DNA from: Acidobacteriota bacterium
GTDB lineage: Bacteria; Acidobacteriota; Vicinamibacteria; Vicinamibacterales; SCN-69-37
Length of the DNA: 64,000 nucleotides
NCBI GenBank assembly: GCA_016716905.1
Contig: JADJUS010000022.1
Location: 140,053 to 204,052 of the forward strand
Reading direction: 5' to 3'
This document shows positions 47,688-57,902 of this stretch, piece after piece. The position numbers were made by a program, and so were the translations under genes. Position 1 is the stretch's first letter, and every line of letters starts with the position of its first letter. The notes under the pieces were generated by a model that did not search any database, was not told where the DNA came from, and saw nothing but the letters and a program-made list of their open reading frames with translations.

Positions 47688-47753
47688 CACCCGGGATATC
47701 CTTCCCCTGTGGTCGCCCGCAGTCCCCGGCACAGCACAGGCGTCAGCCAGGCT

Positions 47754-49136
47754 ATGAGGATGATGGCCGACCAGGCATTCAGCCGCGCAGCCGGCGCGCC
47801 GCTTGTGGCCGGCAACTCCGTGCGTGTCTTGCGTGATGCCGTCGAAAACTATCCGGCGTGGGAGGCGGCGATCCGCAACGCTCGACGAACCATCCACCTG
47901 GAGATGTACATCTTCCATCGGGATGCCGTCGGACGTCGCTTTGTCGATCTGCTGGCGGCAAAGGCGCGCGAGGGTGTGGCGGTGCGGGTGATCTATGACT
48001 GGTTCGGTTGCGGATTCGGGCCGGCCCTCGGCCTGTTCGACCCCCTTCGACAGGCCGGTGCCGACGTGCGCGTGTTTAATCCTCCGACATTCGCCGCCAT
48101 GCTCGGCTGGGTGAGGCGCAACCACCGCAAGCTCCTGATCGTTGACGCCGACGTGGCGTTCATCGGCGGTCTGTGCATCGGGCAGGCCTGGGAAGGCACC
48201 CGCCGGGCAGCCCCCTGGCGCGATACCGCCGTGCAGCTGCGCGGTCCGGTGGTGGGAGATGCCGAACGATCCTTTGCCGACAGTTGGGCCGCCGCCGCAG
48301 ATGACCGCGAGAGCGACACCCCCGTGCGTGCAGAGGCCCCGCCCATTGAGGGCGACGTGAGCGTGCGGTTGATTCCCACCGCGCCGTTCACGGCCAGTAT
48401 GTTCCAGATGGACCTCCTCGTGGCCGCCATGGCCCGACGACGCCTCTGGATTGCCGACGCCTATTTCATCGGGCATGGCCCGTACGCCGACGCGTTGAGC
48501 CGGGCCTCGCGCGATGGCGTGGACGTCCGCCTGCTGCTGCCGCAGGGCAGCGATGTGGGATGGACCGTACCCGTATCCCGCAGTCTGTACCGATCGCTCC
48601 TCAGCGCCGGCGTCCGGGTGTTTGAGTGGACAGGGTCGATGATGCACGCGAAGACCGCCGTCGCCGACTCGCGCTGGAGTCGTGTGGGCTCCACGAACCT
48701 GAATATCAACAGCTGGCTCGGCAACTGGGAACTCGACGTGGCGATAGACGACGAGGGCGTGGCGAGCACGATGGAGGCGCAGTTTGAGGAGGACATGGCC
48801 CACGCCACCGAGATCACCCTCTCGGAACGGGGCCGGCTGCTGGCATCAGGACCGAGCCGCAGGACCGGAAGGGCCAGACGGTCGGCACGGCGCGCGGTCC
48901 GCGAAGTCACGGGCGTGGCGCGCAGTGTCGGCGCCGCGCTGACCGCAAGCCGGCCGCTCGAGGATTTTGAAGTGACGCCGCTGGTGGTAATGGGACTGAC
49001 CGGGATGATTGTGGCTGCGCTCTCGGTCTGGCAGCCGTGGATCGTGGCCTGGCCCGTGGCCGCCGTGGTGGCCTGGGCCGCGGCCAGTCTGTTCGTGGAA
49101 GCCTGGCACGCGTGGCTCGCGTGGAGGCGCCAGTGA
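47754..49136 (+). CDS. phospholipase D family protein (ClsB-like cardiolipin synthase) with C-terminal TM helices
   Basis: Two HKD motifs: HRKLLIVDADVAFIGGLCIG and HAKTAVADSRWSRVGSTNLN. Start is uncertain (GTG 47709 or ATG 47754/47760/47763). Confidence 0.8.
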   Translation: MRMMADQAFSRAAGAPLVAGNSVRVLRDAVENYPAWEAAIRNARRTIHLEMYIFHRDAVGRRFVDLLAAKAREGVAVRVIYDWFGCGFGPALGLFDPLRQAGADVRVFNPPTFAAMLGWVRRNHRKLLIVDADVAFIGGLCIGQAWEGTRRAAPWRDTAVQLRGPVVGDAERSFADSWAAAADDRESDTPVRAEAPPIEGDVSVRLIPTAPFTASMFQMDLLVAAMARRRLWIADAYFIGHGPYADALSRASRDGVDVRLLLPQGSDVGWTVPVSRSLYRSLLSAGVRVFEWTGSMMHAKTAVADSRWSRVGSTNLNINSWLGNWELDVAIDDEGVASTMEAQFEEDMAHATEITLSERGRLLASGPSRRTGRARRSARRAVREVTGVARSVGAALTASRPLEDFEVTPLVVMGLTGMIVAALSVWQPWIVAWPVAAVVAWAAASLFVEAWHAWLAWRRQ

Positions 49137-49969
49137 CGCGACCGGTGGCCATTCGCGCCGTGACGCGGTACGGCGCGGGCCGGCTGACGCACGATCAGGA
49201 TCTGGTGGCGGTGGAAGCGCCGATTGCGTTACGCCTGCACGCGCACACCGGCATCGAACGCGACCTAGGCCTCCTCATGCGCACACCGGGGCATGACGAG
49301 GATCTGGCGGCGGGCGTGCTCGCGGCCGAAGGCGTCGTCGCACGTGCCGGCGACCTCGTGGCGATCGAGGTGCACGACGATGACGCGCGCGAGAGTGGCG
49401 CCGCTGATCGGACGGACGTGATTCACGTCTGGGTGGGCCCCGGGGCGGACGTCAATGCCATCAGTGATCGCGTAGGCACGGCGACCAGCGCGTGTGGGCT
49501 GTGCGGCCGGCTGTCGATGCGACAGATCGACCGCCTGGGCGCGCCACTGGCAGCAGAGACGCCGCGCCTCAGCGCCGATCTCCTTGTGTCATTGCCCGGC
49601 CGGCTTCGCGAGGCCCAACACGCGTTCGCCCAGACGGGTGGGCTGCATGCGGCCGCCGTCTTCACCGCCGATGGCGCTTTGGTGGACGTGCGCGAGGATG
49701 TGGGCCGCCACAACGCGGTGGACAAAGTGGTGGGCGCGCTGCTTCGCCGTGACGGTCTGCCGGCCCGCGACCTGATCCTCGCCGTGAGCGGCCGGGTGGC
49801 GTACGAAATCGTCCAAAAGGCCGCCATGGCGGGGCTGCCGATGATCGTGGCCGTCGGGGCGCCAACGGACCTGGCGGTGGACGCGGCGCGTGCGTGCGGC
49901 ATCACCGTCCTCGGATTCGTCCGCGACGGGCGATTCAACGTGTACACACACGGCCAACGGGTATCATGA
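49133..49969 (+). CDS. fdhD: formate dehydrogenase accessory sulfurtransferase
   Basis: GTG 49133 follows GGAGG and overlaps the PLD stop (GTGA). Motifs TPGHDEDLAAG, SACGLCG and GRHNAVDKVVG. Confidence 0.85.
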   Translation: MTRPVAIRAVTRYGAGRLTHDQDLVAVEAPIALRLHAHTGIERDLGLLMRTPGHDEDLAAGVLAAEGVVARAGDLVAIEVHDDDARESGAADRTDVIHVWVGPGADVNAISDRVGTATSACGLCGRLSMRQIDRLGAPLAAETPRLSADLLVSLPGRLREAQHAFAQTGGLHAAAVFTADGALVDVREDVGRHNAVDKVVGALLRRDGLPARDLILAVSGRVAYEIVQKAAMAGLPMIVAVGAPTDLAVDAARACGITVLGFVRDGRFNVYTHGQRVS

Positions 49970-49971
49970 GA

Positions 49972-50051
49972 GGGGATTTTTCCCCAGTGCTGCGGTGACC
50001 TCGCGAAATTGAACCCGGGACGAGGGCGTGGTTTAGGGATTTACCCAGTGC
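49972..50051 (+). promoter_or_regulatory. pair of direct repeats GGGATTT(n1-2)CCCAGTGC upstream of the multihaem operon (candidate operator)
   Basis: ggggatttttccccagtgc (49972-49990) and gggatttacccagtgc (50036-50051). The first copy contains the palindrome GGGGA-N4-TCCCC. Confidence 0.25.
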
Positions 50052-50109
50052 CGGTCTCTGGGGCAATTGCGGCAAGGATCCTGCAGAGTCAACGAACAGC
50101 GATGCATCC

Positions 50110-51420
50110 ATGACGACCCGTGCGCTCCCCTTTATTGGCTTGCTGACCTGGCTGGCGGCCCTCGGCATGGTGCCGATGGCAGCCTCTCGCCCGCCCTCAC
50201 CTCCCAGGGCGGCGAACCTGGCGGCAATGCAGGCACCGGCTGCGGCAGCCGTTCAGGCACCGTCGAACGACGACTGTCTGTTGTGCCATGGCGAGGCGGA
50301 CGCCAAGGCGGAGAATGGCCGGTCAATCGCCGTGGATGCGTCGCGATTTGGTGGGTCGATTCACGGGGCGCTGGGCCTGACCTGCACCGCGTGCCATACG
50401 GATTTGGCGAGCACGGAATTGCCGCATGCCGCCACCCTGGCCAAGGTCAGCTGCGCCACCTGCCACGAAGACGCCGTTGTGAAGTTCACGGCCAGCATCC
50501 ACTCCACCGCCCGGCGGCAGGGCGCCAATACGTCGGCCGCCACGTGCGTGGACTGCCACACCTCACACGACATTCGCGCGGCCAGCGACCCGGAGTCACG
50601 CACCTACCCGCTGAACCTGCCGGCCACGTGCAGCGCCTGCCACGGTAACCCCGCCATCATCGCCAAAGGGCACATTGCGATTGGCAACGTCGGCGATCTG
50701 TTCAAGGACAGCATTCACGGGCGGGCGATCAGCCGCAGCGGCCTGCTGGTGTCGGCGAACTGCACCTCGTGCCACGGCGCCCACGACATCCTGCCCAAGA
50801 GCGATCCGGCGAGCAAGGTGTTCCGCGCGAACATCCCGCAAGTCTGCGCCGCGTGCCACGGTGGCATTCAGGCGCAGTTTGAGCGCGGGTCACACGGCAC
50901 CGCGCTCGCCGCCGGCAAGACGACGGCGCCGGTGTGCACGGACTGCCACTCGGCCCACGCCATTCAGCGCATCGATGCCGGATCCTGGAAGCTCGACACG
51001 ATCAAAGAGTGCGGCACCTGCCATCTCGACAAGATCAGGACTTACAGGGACACGTTCCACGGCCAGGTGACGTCACTGGGCTTTGTGCGCGTGGCCAAGT
51101 GCTCGGATTGCCACGGCGCGCACGAAGTGCATCCGAAGTCTGATGCGCGCTCGATGGTCGCCCCTGGCCGCGTGCTGTCCACGTGCCAGACGTGTCACGC
51201 CGGCGCCACCGCGAGCTTCGCCGAATACGATCCGCACGCCGACAAGGACGACCCTGCCCGAAACCCGGAACTGTACTACGCATCGCGGTTCATGCACTGG
51301 CTGCTCATCGGCGTGTTCGGGTTCTTCGGCCTGCACGCCGTGCTCTGGCTGCCGCGCAGCATGGCCGAGCGCCGGCGCCGATCGCGGCCGGCCCCGCCCG
51401 AGGAGACCGCGCCTGAATGA
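50110..51420 (+). CDS. undecahaem c-type cytochrome with C-terminal membrane anchor
   Basis: Signal peptide. 11 CXXCH motifs counted by eye: CLLCH, CTACH, CATCH, CVDCH, CSACH, CTSCH, CAACH, CTDCH, CGTCH, CSDCH, CQTCH. C-terminal TM helix FMHWLLIGVFGFFGLHAVLWL. Confidence 0.85.
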   Translation: MTTRALPFIGLLTWLAALGMVPMAASRPPSPPRAANLAAMQAPAAAAVQAPSNDDCLLCHGEADAKAENGRSIAVDASRFGGSIHGALGLTCTACHTDLASTELPHAATLAKVSCATCHEDAVVKFTASIHSTARRQGANTSAATCVDCHTSHDIRAASDPESRTYPLNLPATCSACHGNPAIIAKGHIAIGNVGDLFKDSIHGRAISRSGLLVSANCTSCHGAHDILPKSDPASKVFRANIPQVCAACHGGIQAQFERGSHGTALAAGKTTAPVCTDCHSAHAIQRIDAGSWKLDTIKECGTCHLDKIRTYRDTFHGQVTSLGFVRVAKCSDCHGAHEVHPKSDARSMVAPGRVLSTCQTCHAGATASFAEYDPHADKDDPARNPELYYASRFMHWLLIGVFGFFGLHAVLWLPRSMAERRRRSRPAPPEETAPE

Positions 51421-52265
51421 CCACTCCTGCCGACGTTCCCACGCCCGGGGCCCATCACCGCTTCGTCCGCCGGTTTGATGCGCACGACCGTGTGCTGCAT
51501 GGCCTGCTGATGCTGAGTTTTCTCGGACTGGCCGCCACCGGCCTGCCACTGGTCTTCAGCGATGCCCCGTGGGCGAGCCGGATGGCCGCACTGCTTGGCT
51601 CCTTTGAAATCGCCGGCTGGCTGCACCGTGTCTGCGCCACGCTGCTCATCATCGTGTTTGCCGTCCACCTGACACGCCTGTTTCGCCGCATCGTCGGGCG
51701 GAAGGACTGGGGTGTGTTGTGGGGGCCGTACTCAATGGTGCCGCAGCCACGGGACCTCACCGACCTGATCGGCCACATGCGGTGGTTTGTGGGACGCGGT
51801 CCACGACCACGCTTCGACCGGTATACCTACTGGGAGAAGTTCGACTATTGGGCAGTCTTCTGGGGGATGGGCATCATCGGTGCGTCGGGATTGGTCCTGT
51901 GGTTTCCGATCTTCTTCTCGCAGTTCATGCCAGGATGGATCTTCAACGTGGCGCTCCTGATCCACGGCGAGGAAGCCCTGCTGGCGGTGGGCTTCATCTT
52001 CACGATGCACTTCTTCAACGGCCACCTGCGCCCGGAAAAGTTCCCGATGGACCGGGTCATCTTCACCGGCCGGGTGTCGGAAGCCGAACTGCAGGAGGAA
52101 CGCCCCGATGAATACGCGCGCCTGATCCGCGAAGGGGGATTCGAACGGATTCGTACGGATCCACCTCCCGACTGGCTGGTGCGCCTGGGCACCGTCATTG
52201 GCGCCGTTGCTGTGACGGTTGGCCTGCTGCTGGTGGGCCTGATTCTGTATGCTGTGCTGACGTAA
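51417..52265 (+). CDS. b-type cytochrome membrane subunit (FdnI / Ni-Fe hydrogenase cytochrome b-like)
   Basis: ATGA overlap with the upstream gene. 5 TM helices carrying conserved His (RVLHGLLMLSFLGLAATG, WLHRVCA, VFAVHL, IHGEEALL, FTMHFFNGH). Confidence 0.7.
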   Translation: MTTPADVPTPGAHHRFVRRFDAHDRVLHGLLMLSFLGLAATGLPLVFSDAPWASRMAALLGSFEIAGWLHRVCATLLIIVFAVHLTRLFRRIVGRKDWGVLWGPYSMVPQPRDLTDLIGHMRWFVGRGPRPRFDRYTYWEKFDYWAVFWGMGIIGASGLVLWFPIFFSQFMPGWIFNVALLIHGEEALLAVGFIFTMHFFNGHLRPEKFPMDRVIFTGRVSEAELQEERPDEYARLIREGGFERIRTDPPPDWLVRLGTVIGAVAVTVGLLLVGLILYAVLT

Positions 52266-52280
52266 GACACAACCCTTTCC

Positions 52281-53642
52281 ATGAAAAAACTTCCATTTCT
52301 CCGTCACCCCATTTCCTACTCGGGCGCGCTGCTGGCGCTGTTCAGCGCCACGCTGTTTCTGATTTTTTTCGTCGCCGATTCGGTGGGCTGGCACTCCAAC
52401 CCCTACATGGGAATGGTGTTCGTCATCATCCTGCCGATGGCGTTCATCGCGGGACTCGTGCTGATTCCGATCGGCGTGTGGCGGCAGCATCGACGGGTGG
52501 CTGCCGGCAAAGGCGAGTTGATGTGGCCGACGCTCAACCTCAACTCTCCACGGCACCGGAAAGTGACCGCCATCGTGATGGTGCTCACCCTCATGAACGT
52601 GGTGATCGTGTCGCTCGCGGCGTATTCCGGATTGCACTACATGGACTCGACCGAGTTCTGCGGCACGGTCTGCCACGAAGTGATGGAGCCGCAGCATGTG
52701 GCCTTCCAGAACAGCGCCCATGCGCGTGTGGGATGCGTGCAGTGCCACATCGGGCCTGGCGCGTCCTGGTTCGTGCAGTCGAAGTTGTCGGGCACGCGCC
52801 AGATCGTGGCGGTGACGCTCAACACGTTCTCGAGGCCCATCCCGCAACCGGTGCGCAACCTGCGCCCGGCGCGCGAAACGTGTGAGGCGTGCCACTGGCC
52901 GGAAAAATTCCACGGCGACAAAGTGGTGACGCGCCGGGAGTATGCCAGCGACGAAGCGAATACCATGAGCGAAACCACACTGCAGCTGCATGTCGGTGGC
53001 GGCAGCGACCAGTTGCGCAAGGCGACGGGCATTCACTGGCACACCAGCGCGTCGAGCACGATCGAATACATCGCGACGGATGAAAAACGTGACGTGATTC
53101 CCTGGGTGCGCGTGAGCTACAAGGATGGCACGGTACGCGAGTACGTCGCGGAAGGCACGCCCGCCGATGCGCTGGCCGCCGGGGAACGTCGGCGGTTTGA
53201 CTGTGTGGACTGCCACAACCGCGCGGGCCACCCCTTCGCGAACACGCCTGAACGTGCGGTCGACGCGGCCCTCTCGGCGGGAGAAATGCCGCTGGACCTG
53301 CCGTTTGCGCGTCGCGAGTCGGTGGCGGCGCTCACAGCGACCTACGATTCAAAGGAAGCCGCCCTGGACGCCATCGCCGTCGCACTGCGCGGCTTCTATC
53401 GGACGGAGGTTTCAGCCGCCTACATGGGGCGCAGGCAGGATGTGGAGCGGGTGGTCAACGCGACGCAGGAACTCTATCGGCGCAACGTGTTCCCGACTAT
53501 GAAGGTGGGCTTCGGCAAGTACTCCAACAACATCGGCCACATGGACTTCCCCGGGTGTTTCAGGTGCCATGACGACAACCACAAAGCCGCCGACGGCCGC
53601 GTGATCAGCCAGTCATGCGACCTCTGCCACGAGATTAGATAA
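52281..53642 (+). CDS. NapC/NirT-like membrane-anchored multihaem cytochrome c (5 CXXCH plus 1 CX3CH)
   Basis: Two N-terminal TM helices. FCGTVCHEVMEPQHVAFQNSAHARVGCVQCHIG is a NapC-like core. Further motifs: CEACH, CVDCH, CFRCH, CDLCH. Confidence 0.75.
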   Translation: MKKLPFLRHPISYSGALLALFSATLFLIFFVADSVGWHSNPYMGMVFVIILPMAFIAGLVLIPIGVWRQHRRVAAGKGELMWPTLNLNSPRHRKVTAIVMVLTLMNVVIVSLAAYSGLHYMDSTEFCGTVCHEVMEPQHVAFQNSAHARVGCVQCHIGPGASWFVQSKLSGTRQIVAVTLNTFSRPIPQPVRNLRPARETCEACHWPEKFHGDKVVTRREYASDEANTMSETTLQLHVGGGSDQLRKATGIHWHTSASSTIEYIATDEKRDVIPWVRVSYKDGTVREYVAEGTPADALAAGERRRFDCVDCHNRAGHPFANTPERAVDAALSAGEMPLDLPFARRESVAALTATYDSKEAALDAIAVALRGFYRTEVSAAYMGRRQDVERVVNATQELYRRNVFPTMKVGFGKYSNNIGHMDFPGCFRCHDDNHKAADGRVISQSCDLCHEIR

Positions 53643-53728
53643 TTTCCAGAATGGGACAATGCCGCCGTATCACAGGAGGCACTGAGGCGCACCCCCGCAC
53701 CTCCTGTAATCCGGCGTGAACGCTTCGC

Positions 53729-54085
53729 TCACTTCTTCTTGAGCGATCCCATGTAGGCGACGAGCGCGTCCAGATCTGCGGGCGCCAGCTTGAACGCCTT
53801 CATCTTGAGCGGCTGCTTGACGGCCTGTTTGGCTTCCATCTCTGCCGGGGTGACGATCCACTTCTTGATGTCGTCGGCCGTGAGCTTCGTGCCAACGCCA
53901 TCCAGCGGATACTTCTTCATCCCCTTGCCGTCGATCGCGTGGCAGGTCATGCACTTGTTGGCGTCGTACACCTTCTTGCCCGCCTCAATTTTGGCCGCGT
54001 CCTGCCCGCCAGGTGTTCCGGCTGCCGCCAATGACATACCCGAGACCAGTAACATTCCCGTCAATCCAGCTACGAACTTCTTCAT
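53729..54085 (-). CDS. monohaem class I c-type cytochrome
   Basis: Signal peptide, a single CMTCH, and a distal Met region (PLKMKAF). 118 aa. Confidence 0.85.
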   Translation of the reverse strand: MKKFVAGLTGMLLVSGMSLAAAGTPGGQDAAKIEAGKKVYDANKCMTCHAIDGKGMKKYPLDGVGTKLTADDIKKWIVTPAEMEAKQAVKQPLKMKAFKLAPADLDALVAYMGSLKKK

Positions 54086-54241
54086 AACACGCTCCCTATA
54101 CCTGGAATTATTGCACCAACCGTGCCAACGCGCTGCCGCCCCAGCGTGTCATCGACGGGCGGCATTTCGGCACTTCTGACATTTCTCCCATTTCGCCGCT
54201 GCTGTAAACTTCCTCCGTGGGTTGGGAAGTATTCCGCACCA

Positions 54242-54646
54242 ATGGTTAACAAGACCTCCACCCTGCTGGGGCCGTTGGAATGGCGTGTGCTCGACGCCCT
54301 GTGGGCCCGGGGCGCCGCCGCCACCGTGCGCGACCTCCAGCCTGAGTTTTCCGACATCGCGTACACCACGCTCATGACCACCCTGGACCGCCTGCACCGC
54401 AAGCGGGTGCTCGCGCGCACCAAAGAAGGTCGCGCCTTCGTCTACGAGCCGGTACACGGCCGGGCCGCGTTCGACTCACGCCGGGCCACACAGGCCCTGC
54501 TGGCGGCCGTTGAACGTGGTGGACCATCGGCCACGCCGGTCCTGTCGTGCTTTGTCGAGGCGCTCGGCGACCACGACGAGGCGTTGCTCAGTGAGTTGGA
54601 GACATTGGTTCGCGCGCGCCGCGCGCATCGCGAGAACGCTGAATGA
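54242..54646 (+). CDS. BlaI/MecI/CopY family transcriptional repressor
   Basis: Start at ATG 54242. Winged-helix LGPLEWRVLDALWARGAAATVRDL...YTTLMTTLDRLHRKRVLARTKEGRAFVYEP. Confidence 0.85.
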   Translation: MVNKTSTLLGPLEWRVLDALWARGAAATVRDLQPEFSDIAYTTLMTTLDRLHRKRVLARTKEGRAFVYEPVHGRAAFDSRRATQALLAAVERGGPSATPVLSCFVEALGDHDEALLSELETLVRARRAHRENAE

Positions 54647-55614
54647 CATTTCTTGTGCGATGCCTCGTGCTGGCGCTCGCCGCGTTCGGTGTGGCCGCCC
54701 TCGTGACATCGGTGGTCATCGCCGTCACGTGGTGGCGGAGGACGCCGGCCGGGTCTGCGGCGGTTCGCGCGGACGCCCTGCTGCGGCTGCGCCTCATTCC
54801 TTCAGGCGCAGCCGCGCTCGCGGGCCTGTTTGCGCTCATCGGCCTGTGGCGTTTTGAATCGCGTGATGTGGACGAGGTCCTCGGCTGGACGGTCCTCGCG
54901 AGTGCGGCCACCGGCGCCTGGCTCATGTCGGTATTCCTGACCCGACTGTGGCGCATGCGGCTCGAGACGCGCCGACTCCTGTCATCCTGGCTCGCAGACG
55001 CCACCGCGCTCTCGCTGCCTGGTGTGACGGTGCCGGCTTTCCGCATTGATTCCGGCTTCCCGGTGGTGGCAGTCGTCGGCATCTTCCGCCCCATACTCGT
55101 TGTGGACGGCACCGTGCTCGATGGGTGTAGTGAGGACGAACTCGCGGCCATCCTCGCACACGAACAAGGGCACCTGCGCCGTTGGGACAACCTGCGCCGC
55201 GCCCTCTTTGCGGCAGCGCCCGATCCGCTGTCGCACACCCCGGCAGGTATCCGGTTGCGTGACGACTGGCGCGTGGCAACCGAAGAAGCGGCCGACGATG
55301 TGGCTGCCGAGCGCGGAGAGAATGCCCGGGTCCACCTGGCGAGCGCGCTGCTTCGTGTGGCTCGCCTCGCTCCACGGGCCGCCCAGCAGCCTTCCGGAGC
55401 CTTCCACGGCGCACAACTACCCGCAAGCGCACTGTATCGCGGTGAGAGCGTCGAGGGCCGTGTCCGGCGGCTGATTGACGCGGCTCCGGCTGCTGCGGGC
55501 CGCGCGAGCCGCGGCCTGGGCCTTGGCCTCACTGCGGCGATGGTCACGATCGCTCTCGCCTTCCAACAGGACATTCACGACCTGATGGAAGTGGTGATCG
55601 CGATTCTTCCGTAG
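54643..55614 (+). CDS. M56 (BlaR1-like) membrane metallopeptidase without a recognisable C-terminal sensor domain
   Basis: ATGA overlap with blaI-like. 4 TM helices and the HEXXH site LAAILAHEQGHLRRWD. Only 323 aa. Confidence 0.75.
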   Translation: MTFLVRCLVLALAAFGVAALVTSVVIAVTWWRRTPAGSAAVRADALLRLRLIPSGAAALAGLFALIGLWRFESRDVDEVLGWTVLASAATGAWLMSVFLTRLWRMRLETRRLLSSWLADATALSLPGVTVPAFRIDSGFPVVAVVGIFRPILVVDGTVLDGCSEDELAAILAHEQGHLRRWDNLRRALFAAAPDPLSHTPAGIRLRDDWRVATEEAADDVAAERGENARVHLASALLRVARLAPRAAQQPSGAFHGAQLPASALYRGESVEGRVRRLIDAAPAAAGRASRGLGLGLTAAMVTIALAFQQDIHDLMEVVIAILP

Positions 55615-55649: not shown

Positions 55650-55694
55650 AACTGCTTCTGGTAGTAGCGCCCGGTGCGGCACTATTGTTGTGAC

Positions 55695-57902
55695 ATGCGT
55701 ATCTTCAGGGTTATGGCGGTCGTCGCCGTCGCCCTTTTGACCATCGTCTCCAGTGCGTTCGCCCTCGAGGGACGCCTTGTGGACAAACGGACCGGCACGC
55801 CGGTGGCCGGCGCCGAAGTGATGATTGTGGGCCTGACCGGATCCGTGAAGACGGACGGCGACGGGCGATTTTCCTGGAAGCCCGATCCTGTCGCGCCGTT
55901 CGAGCTGCTGGTGCTCATGCCGAACGGCACGTTGACGCGTCCGGCCCGCGTGACGAGCCTTGATGCGGCGGCGGTGCTCACGATCCTGATTGAGCCCGTG
56001 GTGAATGAAGAAGTCACCGTGACCGCCGGCCTGGCGCCGAGTATTGATGCGGCGCCTGGCGCCGGCATGACGCTGCTCTCCGGACGCGACGTGGCGCTGC
56101 GCCAGCCGGGCAACCTCACGCAGGCGCTCGAGAACGTGCCAGGCGTGAATCAGGTCTCTGAAGGACAGGCCGGCGTGCCGGCCGTGCGCGGACTGGCGCG
56201 CGGGCGCACACTCATCCTGATCGACGGCGCCAGGGTCACCTCCGAGCGCCGCGTGGGCCCGAGCGCCACGTTCCTGGATCCGTTTGGCATCAGTTCAGTC
56301 GATGTGGCTCGCGGCCCCGGGTCAGTGGCGTACGGTTCGGATGCCTTCGGCGGCGTCATCTCGGTGCAGACCCCTCGACCGACCATTGGCGGCCCTTGGC
56401 GCGGCAGACTGACCGGAACGTTTGGCACGGGCGTGCCCGATCGCCGTGGCGGTGTCGAAATTCAAAAGGGCTACGCGACGGGCGCGTTCATCCTGCAGGC
56501 GCACGCACGGAAGGTGGAGGACTACGACGGGCCCACCGCCGCCGTCCTCAATTCCGGCTACGAAGATCGGGGGGTTCTGGCGCGGGTGGATCAGCAGGTG
56601 GGCCACGGCCTGTTGTCGCTCGGCTGGCAGAGTGACTTCGGCCGTAACATCGAGCGCCCCCGCAACAACTCGGCGGCCACGCGGTTCTACTACCCCTTCG
56701 AAAATTCTCACCGTGCGACGGCGTCTTACGAAATCGCGGGCGTGGCCGGGCTCGACCTCGTCCGGGTGCAGGGCTTTTTCGGCACTGTCGCGCAGCGCAC
56801 CGACCAGGATCGGAATCCAACGCCAACCGTGACGCGCCGGATCGAACGTGCCGACATCAAGTCGAAGGATTTTTCCCTGCGGGCGATCGCCGAGAAATTC
56901 CTGAGCCGCGCCCGCCTCGAGTTCGGCGCCGACATCAATGGCCGCACCGGCCTGGAAGCGCACGACGTCCAGATCAACTTCAACCTCGCGGGCGGCGAAA
57001 TATCGCGCACGGACAATCTCTCGACCGAGTCAGCGCGGCGCATCGACACCGGGCTCTTCGTTCAGGCCGACGTCTCGCTGGCCGCTCGGCTCCGGGCCAC
57101 CGGAGGCGCGCGCGTGGACTTTGTGTCGTCGAAGAACACCGGCGGCTACTTTGGTGACACTTCGATCTCACACCAGGCCATGTCGGGATTCGGCGCGATC
57201 ACGCTCGGACCGTTTGAGGGGCTGTCTTTCACCGCGCAGATTTCGCGTGGCTTCCGCGACCCCACATTGTCGGACCGCTTCTATCGGGGTCCGTCAGGAC
57301 GCGGCTTCATTACCGGCAACCCGGACCTCGCCCCGGAAACCAGCGTGCAACTGGACTTCGGCGCCAGGTACACGACCGGCCGCCTTCGCCTGGCCGCCTA
57401 CGTGTATCAATACCGGATTACCGATTTGGTTGAGCGCTACACGACGGCCACTGACTTCTTCTTCTTCCGCAATCGCGGCAAGGCCCAGTACCGCGGTGTC
57501 GAGGTTGAGGCGCAGGCCGACCTCGGTCGTGGCGTCACCCTTGAACTGAGTGGTCAGACCGCGCGCGGACGAGCGCTGGAAGAAGCGAGCAACACGCTGT
57601 GGCTCGATGACGTGGCGCCGAACATGGCGGCGGTCGTTCTGCGCAAGCGTGTGTTGGACAAGGGCTCCGCCCACATTCGAGTGGCCGCCTTCAGCGACGA
57701 CGAGCGGCCCGGGGTGAGCGAAGTCCGTGCGCCTGGTTACACGCTCCTCGATGCGGGCGCGAGTTGGACGCTGTCGCCGCACCTCGAAGTGCGCGCCAAC
57801 GGCAGGAACCTGCTCAACAGGTCGTACTTCGCCAGCCCCGATCCGCGATGGGTCTTCGCACCCGGCCGGAGCGTCTCGGCGACAATCGTCATCGGGTACT
57901 GA
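55695..57902 (+). CDS. TonB-dependent receptor with N-terminal carboxypeptidase-regulatory-like domain
   Basis: ATG 55695 and a signal peptide. LEGRLVDKRTGTPVAGAEVMIVGLTGSVKTDGDGRFSW, then plug motifs (NLTQALENVPGV, RGLARGRTLILIDGARV). C-terminal ...TIVIGY. Confidence 0.85.
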   Translation: MRIFRVMAVVAVALLTIVSSAFALEGRLVDKRTGTPVAGAEVMIVGLTGSVKTDGDGRFSWKPDPVAPFELLVLMPNGTLTRPARVTSLDAAAVLTILIEPVVNEEVTVTAGLAPSIDAAPGAGMTLLSGRDVALRQPGNLTQALENVPGVNQVSEGQAGVPAVRGLARGRTLILIDGARVTSERRVGPSATFLDPFGISSVDVARGPGSVAYGSDAFGGVISVQTPRPTIGGPWRGRLTGTFGTGVPDRRGGVEIQKGYATGAFILQAHARKVEDYDGPTAAVLNSGYEDRGVLARVDQQVGHGLLSLGWQSDFGRNIERPRNNSAATRFYYPFENSHRATASYEIAGVAGLDLVRVQGFFGTVAQRTDQDRNPTPTVTRRIERADIKSKDFSLRAIAEKFLSRARLEFGADINGRTGLEAHDVQINFNLAGGEISRTDNLSTESARRIDTGLFVQADVSLAARLRATGGARVDFVSSKNTGGYFGDTSISHQAMSGFGAITLGPFEGLSFTAQISRGFRDPTLSDRFYRGPSGRGFITGNPDLAPETSVQLDFGARYTTGRLRLAAYVYQYRITDLVERYTTATDFFFFRNRGKAQYRGVEVEAQADLGRGVTLELSGQTARGRALEEASNTLWLDDVAPNMAAVVLRKRVLDKGSAHIRVAAFSDDERPGVSEVRAPGYTLLDAGASWTLSPHLEVRANGRNLLNRSYFASPDPRWVFAPGRSVSATIVIGY

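Follow-up and report, generated by a model that had tools for sequence, protein, structure and literature searches.

A putative split CbcL-type cytochrome encoded beside an ImcH-like cytochrome in an Acidobacteriota bacterium

Inner-membrane quinol oxidoreductases of Geobacter and their relatives

The closest described counterparts of the locus analyzed here are inner-membrane cytochromes of Geobacter. ImcH (GSU3259) of Geobacter sulfurreducens has been studied together with its family (Levar 2014; Zhong & Shi 2018; Pimenta 2023), which is defined by three transmembrane (TM) helices, a CX3CH motif beside the TM domain, and 5–9 CXXCH motifs (PMC6295460; Levar 2014). CbcL (GSU0274) belongs to the CbcL/MtoC/MtrH family and has six TM helices, with one His in each of TM1–3 and two in TM5. 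Both ImcH and CbcL are made constitutively in Geobacter, and it is the acceptor potential that decides which of them carries the flow. The third system, CbcBA (GSU0593–0594), is encoded by two genes, one for a multihaem c-type cytochrome with a His-bearing C-terminal TM helix and, after it, one for a separate dihaem cytochrome b. NrfH, NapC, and CymA are tetrahaem quinol dehydrogenases with one TM helix; their first motif is CXXCH, and they have dedicated partner reductases.

Composition of the locus

All genes of an electron transfer module proposed in a preliminary description were found, on the strands given for them, in the window (the whole 64-kb stretch of soil-bacterium DNA that was analyzed). 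The features are as follows:

FdhD gene: GTG start at 49133, plus strand; PF02634 match (E=1e-63)
Gene 1: 50110–51420, plus strand; 11-haem multihaem cytochrome (MHC), 11 CXXCH motifs, 436 aa
Gene 2: 51417–52265, plus strand; cytochrome b, PF01292 match, 282 aa
Gene 3: 52281–53642, plus strand; ImcH-like, NapC/NirT-like gene, PF03264 match, five CXXCH motifs and one CX3CH motif
Inverted repeat: 53663–53716, no strand; 17-nt arms, located between gene 3 and the convergent cytochrome c gene
Monohaem cytochrome c gene: 53729–54085, minus strand; one CMTCH motif, PF00034 match, convergent on the operon

Genes 1, 2, and 3 are most likely co-transcribed, since the ATG of gene 2 overlaps the stop codon of gene 1 as ATGA and a 15-bp gap follows gene 2. 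Genes 1 and 3 together carry 17 c-haem motifs. These are not a chance occurrence, because, when all 64 kb are translated in six frames, only these two ORFs have at least two CXXCH motifs, and because the haem motifs are kept in 109–120 of 120 homologues. The inverted repeat is a candidate bidirectional terminator, a role put forward tentatively because the repeat was not among the picks of a T-run terminator scan. The monohaem cytochrome c, which converges on the module as first described, is a secreted class I cytochrome and probably a periplasmic partner of the module. Such genes adjoin the module in 14 + 19 related loci, and L002, L004, and L005 have the convergent layout too.

Gene 1 has an N-terminal signal or anchor (residues 5–23) and, as proposed earlier, a C-terminal TM helix (394–412), in which H409 is conserved in 100% of homologues. 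Eleven non-motif His residues (85, 106, 131, 153, 203, 225, 262, 283, 317, 338, and 376) are at least 99% conserved. The top PDB match is 28pb_A (E=6.8e-7 with the single sequence, 3.4e-12 with a profile); it best matches the N-terminal five-haem part of the MHC and is probably the CbcA structure, cited in a review as PDB '2BPB'.

The assignment of gene 2 to a five-helix, FdnI-type cytochrome b joined to gene 1 is borne out by the overlap, by five hydrophobic helices, and by the PF01292 match (33.1 bits, cut-off 30.1). Its H28, H70, H183, and H198 align with the FdnI haem ligands H18, H57, H155, and H169; H84 is invariant too. An AF2 model (pLDDT 84) has as its sole significant PDB fold match FdnI, the gamma subunit of E. 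coli formate dehydrogenase-N (1kqf_C, E=2.9e-6, TM-score 0.76). Although gene 2 and FdnI share the fold and all four haem-ligand His, they are 18% identical, and gene 2 has an additional TM2–TM3 linker and a fifth helix, scores under the NCBIfam cut-off, and is partnered with a multihaem cytochrome and not with FdnGH.

Against a membrane-domain segment of G. sulfurreducens CbcL, read by OCR from a supplementary alignment and not from the full sequence, gene 2 is identical at 33/68 positions (49%), and the alignment score of 180 lies ~27 sd above shuffles (32.6±5.5). The two segments share the motif RWF..RGP.P.F.R..YWEKFD..AVFWGM. Genes 1 and 2 together have six TM helices with one His in each of TM1–3 and two in TM5, and are colinear with 27 fused single-gene MHC-cytochrome b ORFs; six TM-region His, H409 among them, are invariant in 28/28 cases (the window pair and the 27 fused ORFs). 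Judged from sequence, genes 1 and 2 encode, in two pieces, a CbcL-type b/c cytochrome. Gene 1 would be the counterpart of the c-haem domain and the first TM helix, with 11 haems in the periplasm, and gene 2, predicted to be an FdnI/HydC-type cytochrome b with five helices and two haems, would be the counterpart of TM2–TM6. The periplasmic multihaem c domain followed by six HydC/FdnI-type TM helices is common to the CbcL/MtoC/MtrH family. In contrast to Geobacter cbcL, which is one gene, the pair is split after the first TM helix, carries 11 haems instead of 9 and the additional invariant His84, and is linked to an imcH-like gene, whereas cbcL appears from the tags GSU0274 and GSU3259 to be located elsewhere. 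In close relatives of the window, the MHC comes in 7-haem versions. The two-gene layout is shared with CbcBA, but CbcB is described as having four TM helices and three His, as against five TM helices and five conserved His in the window's cytochrome b, and no sigma-54 BccR-type regulator was found in the window.

Gene 3 is NapC/NirT-like and has six haem motifs, as first noted, but its TM helices number three (14–32, 46–64, and 95–113) and not two, and its first haem motif is an atypical CX3CH (CGTVCH, 127–132) straight after TM3. The sequence FCGxVCHxVM is present in 120/120 homologues. Gene 3 matches PF03264 over residues 93–184 and NrfH 2j7a_C (E=6e-6), and its TM-proximal region and first haems are homologous to those of NrfH, NapC, and CymA, including a Lys equivalent to NrfH K82; it differs from these proteins in TM helices, haem number, first motif, and partners. 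Eleven of the 13 published ImcH axial His (137–453) map onto H132, 147, 156, 205, 252, 254, 312, 317, 420, 430, and 450. Residues D122, K168, Q174, and F183 occupy the positions of ImcH E127, K173, Q179, and Y188, and the acidic (D/E), Lys, and Gln residues of this quinol pocket by haem 1 are kept in 164–174 of 175 family members. From TM3 to haem 2, gene 3 is identical at 44/96 positions (46%) to an ImcH segment, a comparison that rests on OCR-read supplementary alignments and not on full sequences. We assign gene 3 to the ImcH family on sequence grounds, because its three TM helices, CX3CH motif, and CXXCH count fit the definition, with every published defining feature present, and because the axial His map. 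It carries six haems and not the seven of Geobacter ImcH, because it ends directly past the sixth motif and lacks the seventh, C-terminal haem. F183 replaces Y188, and gene 3 shares its operon with the genes for a b/c cytochrome; the imcH gene of Geobacter, by contrast, is monocistronic (Levar 2014).

The early comparison of the locus to Geobacter Cbc/ImcH-type quinol-linked inner-membrane multihaem modules was apt, but its parts are not uncharacterized in kind: they are homologous to characterized Cbc and ImcH proteins, which in Geobacter are encoded apart.

Linkage across phyla

Of 50 well-flanked loci, 42 have a homologous cytochrome b gene beside the ImcH-like gene and on its strand, at a distance of no more than 2.4 kb in 38 of those 42; the presence of a cytochrome b and a NapC-like quinol dehydrogenase in one operon, pointed out at the outset, is thus real and conserved. 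The linked loci span about eight phyla, including Acidobacteriota, Zixibacteria, Ignavibacteriota, Bacteroidota, KSB1, and Dadabacteria, and both gene orders occur among them. No Geobacter locus was among those returned by the genome scan. No description of a cytochrome b and a NapC-like or ImcH-like quinol dehydrogenase in one operon was found in the searchable literature, and the linkage of CbcL-like and ImcH-like proteins appears so far undescribed.

Homologous modules elsewhere often adjoin MtrAB(C)-type outer-membrane conduits. DmsE/MtrA decahaem genes (263.6 bits, cut-off 192.2) are nearby in 22 loci, MtrB/PioB porin genes (E=4.5e-70) in 7, and OmcA/MtrC genes (478.7 bits) in 5. An outer-membrane conduit, a Rieske/b complex, a terminal reductase, and a further multihaem gene were all not found in the 64-kb window. 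The missing terminal reductase had been recognized before, but 'conduit', as the module was then called, overstates the window content because an outer-membrane conduit is missing there as well.

Proposed function and alternatives

The cluster is predicted to encode two inner-membrane menaquinol:cytochrome c oxidoreductase modules of kinds characterized in Geobacter, and we consider it probable that they form a menaquinol:cytochrome c entry point with two routes, from which electrons are passed on in the periplasm or to the outside of the cell. In the CbcL-type module, 11 bis-His c-haems would lie in the periplasm, and the C-terminal helix of gene 1 (His409) would pack on the five-helix FdnI-type dihaem cytochrome b, whose quinone site, by analogy with FdnI, may be near the cytoplasmic face. 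In gene 3, an NrfH-like site for quinol, on the periplasmic side by the CX3CH haem (D122, K168, Q174), would feed the six-haem chain; this position is transferred from NrfH. Through both modules, the quinol pool would give up electrons to haem carriers in the periplasm, and the monohaem cytochrome c encoded next to them is a candidate for such a carrier. With the predicted quinol sites at opposite membrane faces, energy should be coupled differently in the two routes: flow through ImcH would be electroneutral, and flow through CbcL would be aided by the membrane potential and could reach lower-potential acceptors.

The close linkage, together with one natural fusion of a cytochrome b and an ImcH-like protein, may mean a single complex and not two parallel routes. 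As an alternative that we regard as possible but doubtful, the three proteins would form one obligate heteromeric complex, in which the MHC helix and the cytochrome b make up a membrane core, ImcH docks on it, and quinone sites on both membrane faces are joined by one haem network. It is favored by the three genes staying together in 38–42 of 50 loci across phyla despite order changes and MHC-cytochrome b fusion or fission, and by the pairing of ImcH-like genes with two diverged cytochrome b subfamilies. In L087, one 734-aa polypeptide combines a PF01292 cytochrome b (residues 7–199) with an ImcH-like protein (257–682), and ahead of it is encoded a 13-haem MHC whose C-terminal TM helix bears a His; this fusion, however, was seen on one contig only, and by BLAST its b domain shows no similarity to the window's cytochrome b. 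Moreover, ImcH and CbcL are genetically separable in Geobacter, encoded apart, and used over different ranges of potential; ImcH, once purified, is active by itself; more distant ImcH relatives stand alone; and the mirror-tree correlation of the ImcH-like and cytochrome b families is just r=0.39.

It is unlikely, though it has been proposed for MtoC/MtrH, which are CbcL homologues, that electrons run in the direction of uptake, with donors outside the cell or in the periplasm (Fe(II), reduced humics) reducing the quinone pool via periplasmic cytochromes. The FdnI fold is natively that of a quinone reductase, and the host lineage is known as aerobic. In mto clusters, mtoD is the adjacent cytochrome gene, and the window has an adjacent monohaem cytochrome c gene as well, but its product does not match MtoD specifically. 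Homologues of CbcL/MtoC/MtrH are found in Fe(II) oxidizers as well as in reducers (PMC6295460), and CbcBA has been proposed to run in reverse in Seep-SRB2. However, ImcH homologues have so far been implicated in quinol oxidation only, and electron transfer from Fe(II) to quinone via a pmf-generating FdnI-type topology would be thermodynamically unfavorable.

Quite unlikely is a general quinol dehydrogenase hub, CymA/NrfH-like, that feeds soluble periplasmic reductases encoded elsewhere (for nitrite, N- or S-oxyanions) and not extracellular transfer. CymA serves many reductases, the N-terminal part of gene 3 is homologous to NrfH and NapC/NirT, and the window is without an outer-membrane conduit. 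None of the 80 loci examined, however, has a linked reductase gene, their recurrent neighbors being MtrA/MtrB/MtrC-type and Rieske/b/MHC genes, and the NCBIfam NrfH, NapC, and TorC scores of gene 3 are far under the cut-offs.

FdhD, earlier counted with the module, is a neighbor and not a part of it, because it is coupled translationally to the upstream PLD/cardiolipin-synthase-like gene, whose stop its GTG start overlaps (GTGA), and because it accompanies the module only in close Vicinamibacterales. FdhD, PLD, and BlaI/BlaR are beside the module in L001–L005 and L007 and in 0 of the more distant loci. 'Orphan fdhD' is nonetheless right as a local description, because no molybdopterin enzyme is among the scanned window ORFs of at least 600 aa, a scan that omits a 718-aa and an 1161-aa overlapping antisense ORF, two more ORFs of that size having been identified only via annotated homologues in L002. 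That the cytochrome b is the gamma-subunit membrane anchor of a formate dehydrogenase or other molybdoenzyme matured by FdhD could be read from its best NCBIfam and PDB matches (formate dehydrogenase gamma/FdnI) and from fdhD lying 140 bp upstream of the cytochromes, but this is extremely improbable and for practical purposes refuted by a TIGR01583 score of 41.6 against a cut-off of 115.85, by the lack of a molybdopterin or FeS subunit in the window scan and the loci examined, by translational coupling of the cytochrome b to the MHC and fusion with it in 27 loci, and by FdhD being coupled to PLD and missing from every locus outside close Vicinamibacterales.

For the two-route entry point, the MtrAB(C)-type conduits adjoining homologous modules in other genomes suggest a use in anaerobic or extracellular respiration. 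Described Vicinamibacteria are aerobes, which makes an anaerobic role in extracellular electron transfer uncertain for the host. Given constitutive synthesis and potential-dependent flow in Geobacter, one operon with both proteins would let electrons leave the quinone pool by two routes in a self-adjusting way. The linkage in one cluster, in many phyla, of proteins that Geobacter uses separately to move electrons out of the inner membrane hints that they may cooperate.

Components of the cytochrome module

The window encodes two membrane-anchored haem proteins, one of the CbcL kind and one of the ImcH kind, with periplasmic haem domains. Both cytochromes are most likely co-transcribed. The genes of this module and the elements directly downstream are as follows:

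50110-51420, + strand: gene 1, multihaem cytochrome (MHC) of 436 aa with 11 CXXCH motifs, an N-terminal signal or anchor helix (residues 5-23) and, before an Arg-rich tail, a C-terminal transmembrane (TM) helix (394-412)
51417-52265, + strand: gene 2, cytochrome b of 282 aa (PF01292) with five hydrophobic helices; its ATG overlaps the stop of gene 1 (ATGA)
52281-53642, + strand: gene 3, ImcH-like protein of 453 aa with PF03264 at residues 93-184, five CXXCH motifs and one CX3CH; 15 bp 3' of gene 2
53663-53716: inverted repeat with 17-nt arms, between gene 3 and the monohaem cytochrome c
53729-54085, - strand: secreted monohaem class I cytochrome c, converging on gene 3

A six-frame translation of the whole 64 kb shows two or more CXXCH motifs in no genes other than 1 and 3, and the haem motifs of both are kept in nearly all of 120 homologues each. 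The module is therefore real and not a chance pattern. The cluster of multihaem, cytochrome b and NapC-like genes with a convergent monohaem cytochrome c is present as the preliminary description had it, with conserved motifs, and Pfam searches place gene 2 in PF01292 and match an N-terminal region of gene 3 to PF03264. Metagenomes contain thousands of homologues of each of the three genes.

The 64-kb window holds no homologue of the MtrA/DmsE decahaem or of the MtrB/PioB porin, and thus no Mtr-type porin-cytochrome conduit. OmcA/MtrC and the trio of Rieske protein, cytochrome b and nine-haem cytochrome found in related loci are also absent from it. A scan for promoter and terminator consensus gave nothing above background. 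The monohaem cytochrome c was considered as MtoD and rejected, there being no specific PDB match.

Relation of the module proteins to CbcL and ImcH

The N-terminal c domain of the CbcL/MtoC/MtrH family contains 3-23 CXXCH motifs, a range that includes the 11 of gene 1. The MHC also has 11 highly conserved non-motif (distal) His, so that each of its 11 haems could have bis-His ligation. E. coli FdnI has four haem ligands (H18, H57, H155, and H169), to which H28, H70, H183, and H198 of gene 2 correspond in the alignment, and FdnI is the sole significant PDB fold match of the gene 2 AF2 model (pLDDT 84; E=2.9e-6, TM-score 0.76). In the CbcL/MtoC/MtrH family the c and b domains form one polypeptide, whereas in the window they are encoded by two genes that overlap at ATGA. 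MHC and cytochrome b are encoded as a single ORF in 27 of 80 related loci, and the window MHC C-terminus, joined to the cytochrome b, is colinear with the fused ORFs across the junction. Since the window has two genes where 27 homologous loci have the fused form, genes 1 and 2 are, judged from their sequences, a split variant of the CbcL-type cytochrome.

The arrangement of His residues is that of CbcL. The MHC TM helix, which carries H409, and the five helices of the cytochrome b make up six TM helices; TM1, TM2, and TM3 have a single His each, and TM5 has two. CbcL, whose family has a HydC/FdnI-like dihaem b domain, is described in the same terms (Joshi et al.). According to that study CbcB has four helices and three His, the fourth b-haem His coming, by description, from CbcA. 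Gene 2, in contrast, has five helices, keeps every one of the four canonical His, and has H84 in addition; it so departs from the CbcB pattern. In the alignment with the fused ORFs, three His of the MHC (H363, H376, and H409) and five of the cytochrome b (H28, H70, H84, H183, and H198) are invariant (28 of 28). H84 and H409 are thus invariant His beyond the four canonical b-haem ligands; judged by sequence position, both should lie near the cytoplasmic ends of their helices, and they could bind a third haem or be part of the quinone site.

Direct comparison was made with two segments of G. sulfurreducens CbcL (WP_010940947.1, 619 aa), machine-read from an alignment in the supplement of PMC9129911. 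Residues 84-151 of gene 2 share 33 of 68 identities with the membrane-domain segment (score 180 versus 32.6+-5.5 for shuffles), including the motif RWF..RGP.P.F.R..YWEKFD..AVFWGM in the TM2-TM3 linker, and the second segment gives 17/40 identities. The N-terminal five-haem part of gene 1 has its best PDB match in 28pb_A (E=3.4e-12 with a profile), which is probably the CbcA structure cited as '2BPB' in a 2026 review.

The number of haems in the MHC ranges from 7 to 19 among related loci. Within close Vicinamibacterales it is 7, 9, or 11. The same numbers are found among close relatives whose cytochrome b is 63-72% identical (loci L002 8286-9164, L005 6236-7165, and L008 1447-2526 compared with window 50110-51420), which shows recent gain or loss of haem modules before a conserved membrane part.

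Gene 3 is an ImcH-family cytochrome. G. sulfurreducens ImcH, with three TM helices and a NapC/NirT-like region, carries seven haem motifs, beginning with a CXXXCH (Levar 2014). ImcH homologues are reported from 12 phyla, 19 of them in Acidobacteria, and have in common three TM helices, a CX3CH beside the TM domain, and five to nine CXXCH (Zhong & Shi 2018). All three traits are present in the gene 3 protein. Hydropathy gives three N-terminal helices (14-32, 46-64, and 95-113), as does an AF2 model (10-34, 43-74, and 90-121) whose overall pLDDT is low (56.6) and too poor for a fold search. The CX3CH is CGTVCH at 127-132, directly after the TM domain, and the five CXXCH lie at 152, 201, 308, 426, and 446. 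The earlier account of a NapC/NirT-like protein with six motifs thus stands, but it has three TM helices and not two, and the first motif is CX3CH.

Conservation around this motif is strong. FCGxVCHxVM is kept in 120/120 close homologues, and C127, C131, H132, and M135 in 174 of 175 ImcH-like family members. The supplement of a biochemical study of ImcH predicts as axial ligands His137, 152, 161, 210, 256, 258, 316, 321, 423, 433, 453, 474, and 491, lists Gln179 with them, and names Glu127, Lys173, and Tyr188 as pocket residues. Gene 3 His132, 147, 156, 205, 252, 254, 312, 317, 420, 430, and 450 correspond to the first 11 of the 13 His, with offsets of -5 to -3. Unlike ImcH, gene 3 ends before the seventh haem and lacks equivalents of H474 and H491. 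In the haem 1 pocket it has D122, K168, and Q174 at the positions of Glu127, Lys173, and Gln179, whereas F183 replaces Tyr188; of the 175 family members, 164 have D or E at position 122, 174 have K at 168, and 165 have Q at 174. A machine-read stretch of Geobacter ImcH from TM3 to haem 2 shares 44/96 identities with gene 3, a value for that stretch only. NrfH is the only solved relative (E=6e-6). An exhaustive search found homologues of gene 3 in 3449 clusters at 50% identity with E<=1e-3, 771 of them with E<=1e-30.

Other assignments of gene 3 were rejected. It is not CbcC, since that member of the Geobacter Cbc5 cluster is OmcQ, a soluble dodecahaem. NrfH/NapC/CymA tetrahaems have a single TM helix and four CXXCH, as opposed to three TM helices and six haems. 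NCBIfam scores fall well below the cut-offs for NrfH (47.5 versus 134.2) and TorC (27.8 versus 455), only the Pfam N-terminal region passing. For the module as such, matches to Nrf, Otr, ACIII, or Qrc are weak and sub-threshold.

Linkage of imcH-like and cbcL-like genes across genomes

A scan of one genome per species with an alignment of diverse ImcH-like proteins gave at least 599 confirmed matches, of which the best 80 loci were searched with the window proteins. This sample is biased to relatives of the window protein (40-97% identity) and includes no Geobacter locus. The closest match among these best 80 of at least 599 is a Vicinamibacterales (Acidobacteriota) MAG, isolate ant_bin.512 (L004), with 97% protein identity. 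Fifty loci extend at least 3 kb to the upstream side and at least 4 kb to the downstream side; 42 of these 50 carry a cytochrome b homologue on the same strand, and in 38 of those 42 it is within 2.4 kb. There are few PF01292 genes per genome, and the frequency of linkage would therefore be far above chance. Over all 80 loci the order is MHC-b-ImcH in 36 and ImcH-MHC-b in 20. Linkage occurs in several Acidobacteriota classes, Zixibacteria, Ignavibacteriota, Bacteroidota, KSB1, Dadabacteria, and others. Three more distant, Geobacter-like seven-haem ImcH relatives have no adjoining PF01292 gene, and Geobacter imcH is monocistronic (Levar 2014).

Neighbouring ORFs of related loci were clustered and representatives scanned against Pfam and NCBIfam. 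DmsE/MtrA-family decahaem genes are found in 22 loci, MtrB/PioB porins in 7, OmcA/MtrC decahaems in 5, and monohaem cytochromes c in 14 + 19. Sigma-54 regulators and histidine kinases recur as neighbours, sigma-54 response regulators being present in 9 related loci. CbcBA has an adjacent sigma-54 regulator, BccR; the window has no sigma-54 regulator. In many Acidobacteriota MAGs, Mtr-type genes are directly beside imcH-like genes (L008, L014 3868-7270, L016, L017, L020, and L026; also L027 52-5161, L032, L036, L059, L065, and others). This contradicts the statement that no mtrAB is adjacent to imcH (Zhong & Shi 2018), and in other genomes it connects the module with outer-membrane electron conduits, though none is present in the window.

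Several other observations concern these loci. In L021 (780-2852, - strand) and in the 13 loci of cluster 'c13' (for example, L029 1159-3681 and L044 1157-3874), the MtrA-like decahaem gene is followed, at the expected position of MtrB, by a gene for a 650-970-aa protein that has a C-terminal aromatic residue and no Pfam or NCBIfam match. It is probably a beta-barrel and may represent an unrecognised porin family of porin-cytochrome conduits. A trio of Rieske protein, b6-type cytochrome b, and nine-haem cytochrome c lies beside imcH-like genes in 16-17 loci (for example, L035 4147-6944, L044 4327-7231, and L019 5047-7870); in L018 and L021 the trio is present and a CbcL-like homologue was not detected. 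One contig, JBMXWU010000346.1 (L087), encodes a 734-aa fusion (P0440, 4261-6465) of a PF01292 cytochrome b (residues 7-199) and an ImcH-like part (257-682), with a 13-haem cytochrome that has a C-terminal TM His directly upstream. The fusion, known from this contig only, may be an assembly or frameshift artefact; BLAST of the window cytochrome b against its b domain found no significant similarity. The MAG labels of L049 ('Patescibacteria group') and L026 ('Bifidobacteriaceae') are implausible for multihaem, Mtr-type clusters, and these contigs are likely mis-binned.

In the literature, within an incomplete coverage, no imcH-cbcL operon, split CbcL, or adjacency of these to Mtr-type conduits was found. 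Three findings thus appear to be undescribed: that imcH-like and cbcL-like genes are widely coupled in operons, that CbcL occurs in a split form, and that both gene types adjoin Mtr-type conduits in Acidobacteriota and other phyla. The components belong to known families or a split variant of one, and the module is therefore only partly 'uncharacterised', as it had first been called.

Possible electron routes and their significance

Based on the related proteins, the module would most likely offer two routes out of the quinone pool. The b domain would bind quinone near the cytoplasmic face, as in FdnI, and the ImcH-like protein, as in NrfH/ImcH, would take up quinol on the periplasmic side, at a site next to the CX3CH haem. 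With a periplasmic-face site, quinol oxidation via ImcH would therefore be electroneutral. The b-domain route would move electrons outward with the membrane potential and release protons inside, at an energy cost, but would bring lower-potential acceptors within reach. This scheme matches Geobacter physiology, in which potentials above about -0.1 V call for ImcH and lower ones for CbcL, both are constitutive, and potential selects the flow. One operon for both would let electrons leave the menaquinol pool in a self-adjusting way, towards periplasmic carriers, for example, the adjacent cytochrome c. For the organism of the window, the direction of flow, acceptors, and conditions of use are a proposal only.

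Alternatively, MHC, cytochrome b, and the ImcH-like protein might form one obligate complex. Tight linkage of the genes and the natural cytochrome b-ImcH fusion of L087, which has a 13-haem MHC bearing a TM His upstream of it, speak for such a complex; however, the proteins are separable in Geobacter, the fusion rests on a single contig, and the mirror-tree correlation is modest (r=0.39), so we regard it as doubtful. Operation in the direction of electron uptake, as proposed for MtoC, is unlikely, and a role as a CymA-like hub for soluble reductases is improbable. Anchoring of an FdhD-linked formate dehydrogenase by the cytochrome b is effectively refuted: gene 2 scores 41.6 against the TIGR01583 cut-off of 115.85 for the gamma subunit (FdnI), and there is no molybdoenzyme among the scanned large ORFs of the window or in the related loci examined.

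FdhD had been noted immediately upstream of the module. Its GTG start (49133) overlaps the stop of an upstream PLD/cardiolipin-synthase-like gene (GTGA; the pair spans 47709-49969), and it lies 140 bp from gene 1. FdhD, the PLD gene, and a BlaI/BlaR1-like pair are beside the module only in close Vicinamibacterales (L001-L005 and L007), and FdhD is therefore a lineage-specific neighbour, which removes the false lead of a functional tie to the cytochromes. Relatives in the Vicinamibacterales keep the PLD-FdhD pair, and within 10 kb there is no molybdoenzyme. Directly downstream of the cytochromes, overlapping genes encode a BlaI-like repressor and a BlaR1/M56-like membrane protease (54122-55614), a position kept in Vicinamibacterales relatives only, and a TonB-dependent receptor is next (55674-57902).

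A more speculative, and rather improbable, idea is that the ImcH and CbcL types are halves of one ancestral machine, in which the MHC helix, a dihaem b domain, and ImcH formed a single complex with opposite-face quinone sites wired by c- and b-haems, the unlinked Geobacter genes being a derived, uncoupled state. If so, potential-dependent switching, and even Q-cycle-like electron recycling without a Rieske protein, would be possible.

Of the proteins by which electrons pass from the quinone pool into extracellular electron transfer, ImcH and CbcL have been studied best; which partners ImcH interacts with was an unanswered question at the time of its description (Levar 2014). In the sampled clade (Acidobacteriota, Ignavibacteriota, Bacteroidota, Zixibacteria, and others), imcH-like genes are usually in one operon with CbcL-type b/c cytochromes and often beside MtrAB(C)-type conduits, which gives ImcH-like proteins a concrete, testable candidate partnership. 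A survey that requires both haem domains, c and b, in a single protein would miss split genes and so count too few CbcL-type proteins. The linkage offers a better genomic marker set for the potential for electron export or import in abundant soil lineages, such as the Vicinamibacterales.
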